A stretch of 64,000 nt of DNA from assembly GCF_017348835.2 (NCBI RefSeq), contig NZ_CP071375.1. The stretch is one strand, 5' to 3'. Below are positions 24,926-29,624 of the stretch, piece by piece (the stretch's first letter is position 1; each line of letters begins with the position of its first letter). Origin of the DNA: Escherichia coli (GTDB lineage Bacteria; Pseudomonadota; Gammaproteobacteria; Enterobacterales; Enterobacteriaceae). The position numbers and the translations under genes were made by a program. The notes beneath the pieces are model-generated. The model was not told the origin of the DNA, searched no databases, and worked only from the letters and a program-made list of their open reading frames with translations.

Positions 24926-25726
24926 TCACCACCAGGCGTGGAAGTGGTGAACCGGACCAATACCGTGACCAACTTCCAGCGTGTCGGCCTGTGCTAACGC
25001 CGATGAAAGCCAGCTTTTTGCCTCCTGTACGGTGTCAGCCCAGTTTGTATGGCGCGGGCGTAGTGCAGCCAACGCCGCAGAGAGCGTACAACCAGTGCCG
25101 TGGGTGTTTTTGGTCATAATGCGCGGTGCAGTAAATCGTTGTTCTCCCTCACGAGTAAACAGCCAGTCCGGGCTTTGTTCAGCATCCAGATGACCACCTT
25201 TCATTAGCACTGCGCCACAGCCCATCGCCAACAGCGATCGCCCTTGTTCCAGCATTTCCTGTTCGGTGCGCGCGTGTGGCGCGTCGAGCAAGGCGGCTGC
25301 TTCGGGCAAGTTTGGCGTTATTAATGAAACCTGTGGCAATAATCGACTGCGTAGCGTGGCAACTGCCGAGGGTGAAAGCAGTGGGTCGCCGCTTTTTGCC
25401 AGCATAACGGTGTCGAGTACCACGTTTTGGATCTGATAACGTTGCAACCGTTCTGCCACCGCTTCAACAATATCGGTTTCCGCCAACATACCGATTTTAG
25501 TGGTGTCGATTCGCACATCGCTGAACACCGAATCGAGCTGGGCAGCGACAAAATCAGGCTCAATGCGATACACCGACTGTACGCCACGGGTGTTTTGCGC
25601 CACCAGAGCAGTAATAACTGAGCAACCATAAGCGCCAAGTGCCGAGAAGGTTTTAAGATCGGCCTGAATCCCCGCACCACCACTCGGATCAGTACCGGCA
25701 ATCGTCAGAGCGTTAATTCGTTTCAT
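24926..25726 (-). CDS. thiD: Hydroxymethylpyrimidine/phosphomethylpyrimidine kinase ThiD (266 aa)
   Basis: 266-aa ORF; PfkB-like HMP kinase; overlaps thiM stop. Confidence 0.92.
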
Positions 25727-26511
25727 GCCTGCACCTCCTGCGTCAATTGCCAGAGCGCATCAAGGAAATGTGGAACAAAACTGCCTGGCCCCTCGCTTCT
25801 GGCGACTGCGCGTTCTCCGGCTTGTTTCATCCAGTGACAGGCAGATGCGACATTTTCCAGCGTATCGCCTGGTAACGCACAGCAGGCAGCGACAACCGCC
25901 GATAATGCACAGCCAGTTCCTACCACTTTGGTCATTAACGGATCGCCACCGTGAATACCAATGATACGATGTCCATCGGTAACATAATCCATCTCTCCAG
26001 TGACCACGACGATTGCGCCGGTTTCCCGTGCCAGTGTTTGTGCAGCGGGTATCGCGTTAGCTGCGGCGTCAGTGGTATCCACTCCCCGTCCGCCATTAGC
26101 AATGCCAGCTAATGCCATGATTTCCGAAGCATTACCACGTATCGCTGCCGGTTTAAAAGATAAAAGTTCATGACAAAAATGGCGGCGATAATCGAGCGCA
26201 CCAACCGCTACTGGATCAAGCGTCCAGGGTGTTTGAGAGCTTTTTGCTTGCTCAACGGCAGCACGCATCGCCTGTGCGCGTGGCTGCGTCAGTGTGCCAA
26301 CGTTAATCAACAAGGCACTGGCGATAGCCGCAAACTGACTGGCCTCTTCGGTTTCGATAACCATCGCTGGCGATGCACCGAGCGCCAGCAAGGTATTGGC
26401 AGTAAAGGTTTGCACCACATCGTTGGTCATGCAGTGCACAAGAGGGGAATGTTGGTGAAAAAGGTGTAACGTGTGCGCAGATTGCGCGGAACTCAGCAGG
26501 TCGACTTGCAT
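25723..26511 (-). CDS. thiM: Hydroxyethylthiazole kinase ThiM (262 aa)
   Basis: 262-aa ORF directly downstream of the thi-box riboswitch. Confidence 0.92.
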
Positions 26512-26733: not shown

Positions 26734-27006
26734 TTATTTGATATATGAATCCAGCACCTTCAGAACGACATCCAGATCTTCTTCACGTTTTAGCTCATCC
26801 CCCTGGTGAACGATGTGTTCAGTTAGATGACCTTTAATCACTTCCCGCATCAGACCGTTTACCGCGCCACGGATAGCAGCAATCTGTTGTAAAACTGCAG
26901 CGCATTCGTGCGGCTCGTCGAGCATTTTCTTGAGCGCCACGACCTGGCCCTGAATCTTACTGGCACGTGCTTTCAGTTTCTGTTTATCACGGATTGTATG
27001 AGACAT
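26734..27006 (-). CDS. rcnR: Ni/Co-responsive repressor RcnR (90 aa), CsoR/RcnR family
   Basis: 90-aa ORF with CsoR/RcnR-family metal-ligand residues; divergent from rcnA. Confidence 0.9.
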
Positions 27007-27054: not shown

Positions 27055-27069
27055 TACTGGGGGGTAGTA
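27055..27069. promoter_or_regulatory. RcnR operator site 1 (TACT-G6-N-AGTA)
   Basis: TACTGGGGGGTAGTA in the rcnR-rcnA divergent intergenic region. Confidence 0.8.
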
Positions 27070-27074
27070 TCAGG

Positions 27075-27089
27075 TACTGGGGGGGAGTA
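27075..27089. promoter_or_regulatory. RcnR operator site 2 (TACT-G6-N-AGTA)
   Basis: TACTGGGGGGGAGTA, 5 bp downstream of site 1. Confidence 0.8.
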
Positions 27090-27126: not shown

Positions 27127-27951
27127 ATGACCGAATTTACAACTCTTCTTCAGCAAGGAAACGCCTGGTTCTTCATCCCCAGCGCCATCTTACTTGGTGC
27201 GCTTCATGGCCTGGAACCAGGGCACTCAAAAACGATGATGGCGGCGTTTATCATCGCCATCAAAGGCACCATTAAACAGGCGGTGATGCTCGGACTGGCA
27301 GCAACCATTTCGCATACCGCAGTGGTCTGGTTGATTGCCTTTGGCGGGATGGTGATCAGCAAGCGCTTTACTGCTCAATCAGCAGAACCGTGGCTCCAGT
27401 TGATTTCCGCAGTGATCATTATTGGCACCGCGTTCTGGATGTTCTGGCGTACCTGGCGCGGCGAACGCAACTGGCTGGAGAATATGCACGAGCATGATCA
27501 TGAGCATCATCACCACGATCACGAAGATCACCACGACCAAGGACATCATCACCATCACGAACATGGCGAGTATCAGGATGCCCATGCACGAGCCCATGCC
27601 AATGACATTAAACGACGCTTTGATGGTAGAGAGGTCACCAACTGGCAAATTTTGCTATTTGGCTTAACCGGTGGCCTTATCCCCTGCCCGGCAGCAATTA
27701 CCGTGCTGTTGATTTGCATTCAGTTGAAAGCCCTGACACTGGGCGCAACACTGGTCGTCAGTTTCAGCATTGGCCTGGCGTTAACGCTTGTCACCGTAGG
27801 CGTTGGCGCAGCAATCAGCGTTCAGCAGGTCGCAAAACGCTGGAGCGGATTTAACACTCTCGCTAAACGCGCCCCCTATTTTTCCAGTCTGTTGATTGGC
27901 TTAGTTGGTGTGTATATGGGCGTACATGGCTTCATGGGCATAATGCGATAA
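27127..27951 (+). CDS. rcnA: Ni/Co efflux protein RcnA (274 aa) with histidine-rich loop
   Basis: Membrane protein with central His/Asp/Glu-rich tract (HEHDHEHHHHDHEDHHDQGHHHHHEH). Confidence 0.92.
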   Translation: MTEFTTLLQQGNAWFFIPSAILLGALHGLEPGHSKTMMAAFIIAIKGTIKQAVMLGLAATISHTAVVWLIAFGGMVISKRFTAQSAEPWLQLISAVIIIGTAFWMFWRTWRGERNWLENMHEHDHEHHHHDHEDHHDQGHHHHHEHGEYQDAHARAHANDIKRRFDGREVTNWQILLFGLTGGLIPCPAAITVLLICIQLKALTLGATLVVSFSIGLALTLVTVGVGAAISVQQVAKRWSGFNTLAKRAPYFSSLLIGLVGVYMGVHGFMGIMR

Positions 27952-28169
27952 CTCAATCCTTTAGGCTTGCATGTTATCTTCAGCCCAGGATGATTCTTAA
28001 ATCAGCTATTTCCGCAGACTCTCTGCTCGCTAAGGATGCTTTTAGGGCATCCTTTCATTTACACTTTTTACGAAATCATGGGATCACTAACAAAATATCG
28101 CTTGTCAGTTATATTGTATGGCAGGAAAGATATGCGACTGATATTACAGATCCCCAAAGTGGAGAGTTT

Positions 28170-28508
28170 ATGACCATTCAAAATAAGATGTTGCTGGGTG
28201 TGCTTTTGCTAGTTACCAGTGCCGCCTGGGCCGCACCAGCCACCGCGGGTTCGACCAATACCTCGGGAATTTCTAAGTATGAGTTAAGCAGTTTCATTGC
28301 TGACTTTAAGCATTTCAAACCAGGCGATACCGTCCCAGAGATGTACCGCACCGATGAGTACAACATTAAGCAGTGGCAGTTACGTAACCTGCCCGCACCT
28401 GATGCCGGGACGCACTGGACCTATATGGGTGGCGCGTACGTGTTGATCAGCGACACCGACGGTAAAATCATTAAAGCCTACGACGGTGAGATTTTTTATC
28501 ATCGCTAA
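28170..28508 (+). CDS. rcnB: Periplasmic Ni/Co homeostasis protein RcnB (YohN), 112 aa
   Basis: Start assigned to the ATG preceded by GGAGAG; signal peptide; the 172-aa track ORF is an upstream in-frame extension without RBS. Confidence 0.85.
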   Translation: MTIQNKMLLGVLLLVTSAAWAAPATAGSTNTSGISKYELSSFIADFKHFKPGDTVPEMYRTDEYNIKQWQLRNLPAPDAGTHWTYMGGAYVLISDTDGKIIKAYDGEIFYHR

Positions 28509-28589: not shown

Positions 28590-29624
28590 TTAGTCGTATT
28601 TCACGTTGATTAGTGCGGTTGCCTGTAGTGCGCCAGATTTAACTTTGTTTGTATCGTAGACGTAGTAACTGGCTGTTATCGGAATTGAAACCGTTGTATC
28701 TGTAAGTTTTGACTTTGCCGCAATTTCTTTTAAATTTGTGTATCCTTTACTGCTGTTAGTGATATTTAAAAGTGTGACTGGCGAACCATTACTTTCAAGA
28801 ATAAATCCTACGCCATTATCTTCCGCACCTTTCAGTATTGTGTTGCTGTTGGTTAACAAGTCAGAACTTGATAAATACACCTGCATTTTCCGTGATGTTT
28901 GATTTTGTTGACCTAATAAATTTTTACAACGCAGAATAATATCCTCTTTTTTACTATTTATTGTTGCTTTGTTACCTGTCGCTGGTAATTGTGAAACGGG
29001 AATACTGTCTAAAGTAATTAATAAATCGTCCGGTTTGCAGGTTGTGGTTATCGGGTTGTATGACAATGTCAGATTAAAGGAATAGACACCTGCATTTTGT
29101 GCCAATGCATTTCTGTAGCTATTTACACATGCATCCCATGACTTACCACCTAATAAACACAGTAGAAATTGTACTGCGGCACTCCCGCGTGTCGATGATG
29201 AAGCACTGGATAATGTCGCAACTCCATTAATCATCACTGAACCGCCGCCCCCCGCAGAAACATTCACTTTTGCATTACTAGCCGCAGGTGTCACCGTTAC
29301 CGAATAACCACTGGTGAAACTGGTCTGATTATTTGACAACGTGATGTTGTTTTTATTGGTCCATTCAAAATGTAAATTTAATTTAATGGTATCGTTATAA
29401 AGTCCAACAATAATATCCGACGGGCTCATAGGGGTGATAGTATTTGTACTCACGCATGACGAATCATTAAAATTATGCTCATAGGTCGCCATTTGTGTTT
29501 GAGTAAGTGCAAAATCCCCCTGAACAACCAAGTTGTGCTGAACAGATAACTCACTATAACATGCTGCATAGCTCACTGGCATAACCATCATCATTAATAT
29601 AAATAGCATTATGCGAATTTTCAT
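28590..29624 (-). CDS. yehA: Fimbrial adhesin-like protein YehA (344 aa)
   Basis: Signal peptide; Ser/Thr/Asn-rich fimbrial-type sequence; last gene of the yehDCBA chaperone-usher operon. Confidence 0.85.
   Translation of the reverse strand: MKIRIMLFILMMMVMPVSYAACYSELSVQHNLVVQGDFALTQTQMATYEHNFNDSSCVSTNTITPMSPSDIIVGLYNDTIKLNLHFEWTNKNNITLSNNQTSFTSGYSVTVTPAASNAKVNVSAGGGGSVMINGVATLSSASSSTRGSAAVQFLLCLLGGKSWDACVNSYRNALAQNAGVYSFNLTLSYNPITTTCKPDDLLITLDSIPVSQLPATGNKATINSKKEDIILRCKNLLGQQNQTSRKMQVYLSSSDLLTNSNTILKGAEDNGVGFILESNGSPVTLLNITNSSKGYTNLKEIAAKSKLTDTTVSIPITASYYVYDTNKVKSGALQATALINVKYD

Follow-up and report, generated by a model that had tools for sequence, protein, structure and literature searches.

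The DNA analysed here is a stretch of 64,000 nucleotides of Escherichia coli (contig NZ_CP071375.1; referred to as the window), and the tract under study lies within rcnA (27127..27951, + strand), an intact open reading frame of 825 bp that encodes a 274-residue Ni(II)/Co(II) efflux membrane protein of the NicO family. The window RcnA matches the Pfam NicO profile (PF03824) with E=6.1e-70, residues 13-273 aligning on profile positions 1-285 out of 287, and reaches 558 bits (cutoff 195; E=3e-168) against the NCBIfam nickel/cobalt efflux transporter model NF007454. Its gene is 100% identical over 825 bp to the annotated rcnA of strain PE164, and rcnA is the RefSeq name of the matching gene in 5,365 out of 5,426 complete E. 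coli genomes. No rcnA match was found in 61 of these 5,426 genomes, a few genomes presented two matching places, and one plasmid-borne match was observed among 20,395 records.

The export of nickel and cobalt by RcnA under the control of RcnR is established, and the genes and sites involved are found together in the window. The rcnR gene (26734..27006, - strand), encoding the Ni/Co-responsive repressor, is divergent from rcnA and was identified by its match to the NCBIfam RcnR equivalog NF011613 (E=4e-59), by its open reading frame and by the annotation of the K-12 locus. The intergenic region between rcnR and rcnA carries, as read from the sequence, the RcnR operator motif TACT-G6-N-AGTA twice (27055..27069 and 27075..27089), as defined in PMC7055735, and two RcnR operators have also been described at this position in K-12. 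Downstream lies rcnB (28170..28508, + strand), encoding a periplasmic accessory protein of the efflux system, whose coordinates were transferred from the K-12 annotation and correspond to the in-frame part of an ORF spanning 27990..28508. Since an NCBIfam search at the default threshold gave no match for rcnB in the window, it is identified from what RefSeq annotates at the collinear locus. The arrangement rcnR-operators-rcnA-rcnB is supported by profile, motif and collinearity with K-12. As in K-12, the rcn locus is bordered by thiM (25723..26511) and thiD (24926..25726), both on the - strand, and by yehA (28590..29624, - strand), a 344-aa ORF downstream of rcnB encoding a putative fimbrial-like adhesin. 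A TPP riboswitch (RF00059; 26546..26642, - strand; 71.2 bits) is located upstream of thiM, which is the ordinary K-12 arrangement. In strain ZF31, only the first 111 bp of rcnA are present, adjoining yehA.

A histidine-rich loop between two predicted helix bundles

The initial annotation had pointed to a histidine-rich low-complexity tract in rcnA, built from CAC, CAT and GAT codons, at 27481..27570, and this description was confirmed by in-frame translation, codon counts and the proportion of His. The interval is in frame with the rcnA ORF and encodes residues N119-E148 (NMHEHDHEHHHHDHEDHHDQGHHHHHEHGE), while the peptide that had been quoted, HEHDHEHHHHDHEDHHDQGHHHHHEH, corresponds to RcnA residues 121-146. 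The His/Asp/Glu-rich loop itself was delimited as 27484..27567 (+ strand), that is, the 28 codons from M120 to G147, the wider interval being the same plus one codon at each side. These 28 codons comprise eight CAC, eight CAT, three GAT, one GAC, two GAG, two GAA, one CAA, two GGN and one ATG, so that 16 out of the 28 loop residues are His, in a protein containing 22 His in all. On a background of 2.3% His, the binomial probability of such a content is approximately 1e-19.

Because the loop is made almost exclusively of CAY (His) and GAN (Asp/Glu) codons, its DNA is cryptically repetitive, and in the window it is only cryptically so. Tandem Repeats Finder detected an imperfect repeat of period 18 at 27508..27564 (+ strand; 3.2 copies, 74% matches), with overlapping rows of period 9 and period 12, and the longest perfect tandem in the tract consists of two copies of CATCAC.

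The AlphaFold2 model of the window RcnA, built with 35 homologues, has a mean pLDDT of 80.8 and a pTM of 0.71. It contains confidently predicted helices from residues 2 to 120 and from 149 to 273, and a low-confidence coil in between, at residues 121-148; the mean pLDDT of the successive 10-residue blocks across residues 121-150 is 63, 48 and 45. An organization in two helix bundles with a hydrophilic, His-rich loop between them was found in the model, in the hydropathy profile and in the loops of the homologues, and the low-confidence coil fits a disordered linker joining two membrane-helix bundles. Eight Lys/Arg residues lie within residues 106-170, at either side of the tract (the flanks being WRTWRGERNW and DIKRRFDGRE), and, by the positive-inside rule, they suggest that the loop is cytoplasmic, in agreement with the prediction made for homologues in PMC11247825. 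A search of PDB sequences retrieved no solved structure for the family, but only weak matches (best E about 5e-4) to unrelated proteins.

Loop length and sequence across E. coli genomes

In the initial annotation, it was proposed that the tract may vary in length among strains, and that an identical length and sequence in all relatives would speak against it. The comparison across strains revealed that the tract is far from identical: the locus does vary in length. Eighteen alleles were taken from RefSeq complete genomes and aligned. The annotated RcnA proteins of the alleles fetched have 262, 267, 269, 273, 274, 277, 278, 279, 281, 283, 285 and 293 residues and, among the 18 alleles, all length differences sit between the conserved flanks NWLEN and EYQDAH, the remaining protein being nearly invariant. 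The loop ranges from 48 to 141 nt in these alleles, and the gene varies in length nowhere else. A wider view was obtained from the best 120 database proteins, from which 116 anchored proteins were drawn (all from E. coli or Shigella where named); they contain 42 distinct loops, of 21-54 residues and with 12-32 His.

The frequency of the length variants was inferred from BLAST identity bands and from 60-row systematic samples, using as query the loop plus 45 nt at each side (174 nt), which matches 5,363 E. coli genomes. Identity to the query is at least 99% in 1,404 genomes and 95-99% in 3,291, so that 4,695 out of 5,363 genomes are at least 95% identical over this region, and it falls below 95% in 668 (12.5%). 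This last percentage must be read as a lower bound, because a gain or loss of 3 to 6 nt still leaves a genome in the 95-99% band; hence, at least 668 of the 5,363 genomes differ by indels. In a 60-row systematic sample, 51 rows cover the whole query over a span of 174 nt, and one further row lacks a match to the first three bases only, with no indels. Seven rows differ by +15, -15, +24, -21, +51, +27 and +33 nt, and one row is cut by an IS3 element. The locus is, on these counts, hypervariable.

The allele present in the window belongs to the commonest length class, that is, an 84-nt loop in a 274-aa protein, a length shared by about 87% of the genomes and found also in K-12, NU14 and ST131. 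Rodrigue et al. are said to have described, in 2005, the His-rich loop of K-12 RcnA (YohM). The K-12 protein is encoded by the same gene at the same position, likewise accompanied by rcnR and rcnB and with a loop of 84 nt; over its whole length, this gene is 98.4% identical to that of the window. The two proteins differ in the loop at four residues (E122G, H125Y, D134H and Q139H, from window to K-12) and, outside the loop, at one (G100S), so that the loop contains 16 His in the window versus 17 in K-12. In PMC11247825, the His-rich loop of K-12 RcnA was described as having 67 residues, 17 of them His. Within the 84-nt class, substitutions too are concentrated in the loop: among 50 distinct proteins of 274 residues, 10 of the 28 loop sites are variable, compared with 36 of 246 elsewhere (Fisher p=0.013), and the differences per site amount to 0.043 in the loop versus 0.008 in the rest. 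This indicates that, even at constant length, substitutions accumulate faster in the loop than elsewhere in RcnA.

Could the differences in length be produced mainly by the sequencing or the assembly of a low-complexity region? Some platforms are error-prone on low-complexity tracts, and one case might be so explained. In strain FDN-9 (NZ_CP158140.1, locus 124-974), which carries a (GACCAC)4-type allele, a 1-nt deletion is found in the His tract (GAG CAT CA- CAC CAC), and rcnA was labelled as frameshifted (pseudogene) by PGAP; this frameshift is either a real mutation or a sequencing error. However, with a single exception, the sampled variants differ by exact multiples of 3 or 6, the same alleles recur in many independent complete genomes of one lineage (for instance, six repeat copies in 20 sampled O157 genomes), and PCR fragment sizing in MLVA makes independent use of the polymorphism. 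A largely artefactual origin of the length variation is thus most improbable. The initial annotation had singled out the tract as the most likely place in the gene for an assembly or indel error. Given that the FDN-9 frameshift lies inside it, an indel error or mutation is indeed plausible at the tract, although this does not extend to the window itself, for which an assembly error was ruled out by the intact ORF, the commonest length and the full identity with the gene from the complete genome of PE164. In practical terms, whoever annotates or assembles rcnA should be prepared for genuine in-frame changes of length, and for an occasional error, at this place, and an RcnA of 262-293 residues is no reason to call a mis-assembly.

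Insertion elements were also observed at the locus. In strain 81EVA (NZ_CP138397.1, locus about 2000), an IS3-family element replaces the 5' half of rcnA, with its junction inside the His tract, and rcnA resumes at GAA CAT CAC CAC GAC CAT GGA. In allele L014, an IS1A element is placed 36 bp downstream of rcnA.

Perfect hexamer arrays at a known typing site

In two lineage groups of E. coli, the length variants are built on perfect hexamer arrays. O157:H7-type genomes carry perfect (GACCAC)n, encoding (DH)n, with n from 4 to 11. In a 60-row sample, the spans of these alleles differ by exact multiples of 6 and their identities equal the values expected from gaps only; the array was found with n=4 in four rows, n=5 in four, n=6 in 20, n=7 in 10, n=8 in four, n=9 in one and n=10 in two, and n=11 occurs in allele L006. 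A second array, (CACGAG)n, encoding (HE)n with n=3, 4, 5 or 7, is present in about 146 genomes, including ST648 and IAI39. Other alleles point to different mutational routes. Thus, L003 lacks 36 nt of the K-12 allele, the missing stretch being flanked by ATCACGAACAT, as in a deletion between short direct repeats, whereas loops of 45-54 residues contain duplicated blocks of 9-18 codons (such as HHHHHHDHE or DHEHHHDHGHH, each present twice).

In the window, no perfect head-to-tail GACCAC array is found, but only an interrupted remnant (CAC CAC GAC CAA) and, therefore, its allele can be considered a degenerate, non-array allele of a VNTR locus. The window and K-12 alleles contain at most two perfect hexamer copies, as opposed to 4-11 in the O157 type, and the variation scales with repeat perfection, which is what predicts instability. 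Consequently, the notion that the tract is prone to slippage, as initially annotated, holds for the locus, where perfect hexamers form a copy-number series, but not for the window allele, which has no perfect array, is a poor substrate for slippage and is stable in length.

A repetitive tract in a coding region, together with one frameshifted allele, might also evoke a contingency locus, in which rcnA would be switched on and off by frameshifting (phase variation). This is hardly credible here, because the repeat units (6, 9, 18, 27 and 36 nt) are all multiples of 3. Moreover, roughly 190 sampled rows yielded a single out-of-frame allele, and the 1-nt deletion in FDN-9 is not placed in a homopolymer or in a non-triplet repeat.

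The polymorphism in length of this site is already known, and hence not new, because it has long been used as a variable-repeat marker in typing schemes. For E. coli O157, GACCAC is the repeat unit of the MLVA locus TR7 (PMC2246123). The forward TR7 primer from that work matches the window at 27408..27426 (+ strand) with one mismatch, and exactly in the O157 and K-12 loci, whereas the site of the reverse primer (as its complement, 27750..27769, + strand) is matched exactly by the window and by each of 14 loci compared. As the primers match at both sides, they bracket the tract; the window tract thus sits between the TR7 primer sites, at a position that is polymorphic in length within the species. 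The O157 TR7 alleles differ from that of the window in having 4-11 perfect GACCAC copies and an additional DNE after the loop, the window having neither. CVN014, a generic E. coli MLVA locus, is a doubtful candidate for the same site: it shows 2-11 copies within ST131, versus a standard 825-bp rcnA in the ST131 genome sampled.

Related markers are used in other enterobacteria. In Salmonella, the VNTR STTR5 lies in YohM (PMC5183578), and SENTR5/SE-5 is a 6-bp repeat in yohM (PMC2430564); in K. pneumoniae, the MLVA locus 27 is a CATGGT repeat in rcnA. The loss of an (HD)9 block from Salmonella rcnA has been documented during in vivo passage (PMC6760104). STTR5/SENTR5 and Klebsiella locus 27 correspond to the homologous loop and are likewise 6-bp, in-frame repeats, but their arrays are long and perfect, while the window tract is imperfect and stable in length. 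The locus, therefore, already serves in outbreak typing.

Possible roles of the loop and its expansion in homologues

These observations can be integrated in a model that we consider very probable, in which the tract encodes the central loop of RcnA and changes its length by slippage, deletion and duplication, rapidly so where perfect hexamers are present, the allele of the window being a common, intact and stable one and the variation being close to neutral. Briefly, the loop would join the N-terminal and the C-terminal membrane-helix bundles, being predicted as disordered and as cytoplasmic, and its His, Asp and Glu residues would most likely serve as ligands of Ni/Co at the cytoplasmic face. 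The bound metal might then be handed to the transport pathway, or the loop might gate this pathway; the loops of CDF and ZIP transporters offer an analogy. Slippage during replication, the loss of sequence between short direct repeats and the duplication of blocks would all alter the length in frame. A perfect hexamer array, once formed, would turn the site into a fast VNTR, built on (GACCAC)n in genomes of the O157:H7 type and on (CACGAG)n in another set of genomes, whereas the synonymous alternation of CAC and CAT, together with Glu, Gly and Gln codons, would break the repeats and yield a stable length, as in the window. Within the tolerated range, the variation in length is probably neutral or weakly selected.

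The His-rich cytoplasmic loops of CDF (ZnT/MTP/CzcD) and ZIP transporters are disordered, variable in length and located between membrane helices, and their proposed function is the capture, sensing or gating of metal at the cytoplasmic face. These are, however, families unrelated to RcnA, which belongs to NicO, and the likeness is one of mechanism only; the Pfam profile matches of the window RcnA include neither Cation_efflux nor Zip.

A different role for the loop would be that of a cytoplasmic chelator or buffer of Ni/Co, rather than a part of the transport process, with its length setting the buffering capacity. This would agree with the presence of 16 His among 28 residues. Against it, RcnA reportedly lowers intracellular Ni/Co (Rodrigue 2005; Iwig 2006). 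In addition, the protein has two conserved membrane halves with invariant residues (E30-P31-G32-H33, K35 and P186-C187), as would befit a transporter, and a stoichiometric chelator at the copy number of a membrane protein would bind little metal. The possibility was raised in PMC11247825, where RcnA was considered as either an exporter or a protein that chelates metal with its His-rich loop, and the question was left undecided there; in view of the above, we regard a mainly chelating loop as quite unlikely.

The initial annotation suggested that differences in length tune metal efflux, and the length of the loop might, alternatively, be adaptive. On such a view, selection on loop length and His count would set the capacity or the threshold of Ni/Co efflux in each lineage, and the arrays would be kept for evolvability. 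Several lineages have indeed a perfect hexamer array of their own in this loop (GACCAC and CACGAG within E. coli, (HD)n in the STTR5 locus of Salmonella and CATGGT in Klebsiella), and nearly all variants are in frame, but units of 6 nt keep the frame automatically. The dominance of mid-range STTR5 alleles was taken to suggest functional constraint in PMC5183578, although mutational bias, discussed in the same work, can also produce it. The loop is, moreover, strongly expanded in cable bacteria (PMC11247825). On the other hand, no allele has been tied to any phenotype, and a single loop length prevails in about 87% of E. coli genomes, which come from a variety of hosts and habitats. On balance, adaptive tuning in general deserves a minor share of credence, and its more specific version, in which the repeated perfect hexamer arrays would constitute a selected rheostat for the fast retuning of the cytoplasmic Ni/Co set-point and the 84-nt allele of the window a locked setting, appears unlikely. 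Neutral or weakly constrained variation is, then, more likely than adaptive tuning. The natural series of alleles documented here could serve to directly test the effect of loop length and His count on Ni/Co efflux.

Beyond E. coli, the loop of 50 full-length representatives of the family (50% identity level) ranges from about 14 to 249 residues and is mostly rich in HD, HG or HE. In about 10 of these 50 homologues, all outside the window, the loop reaches 127-249 residues and presents, besides the His-rich stretches, a conserved segment of approximately 100 residues (IDTGHG...PPRWRL...YLES..IPEPH.F...L.HGGH.H.Y..F), in which one Gly and three His are invariant. This segment gave no Pfam match. 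Its AlphaFold2 model is a confidently predicted all-β sandwich (pLDDT 88, pTM 0.80). A Foldseek search of the β-domain against the PDB produced no match with E below 0.001, the resemblance being that of a generic β-sandwich; the best TM-scores include BhCBM56, a carbohydrate-binding module, and the Helicobacter pylori copper-resistance protein CrdA. The β-domain inserted in these long loops may be an undescribed metal-binding domain.
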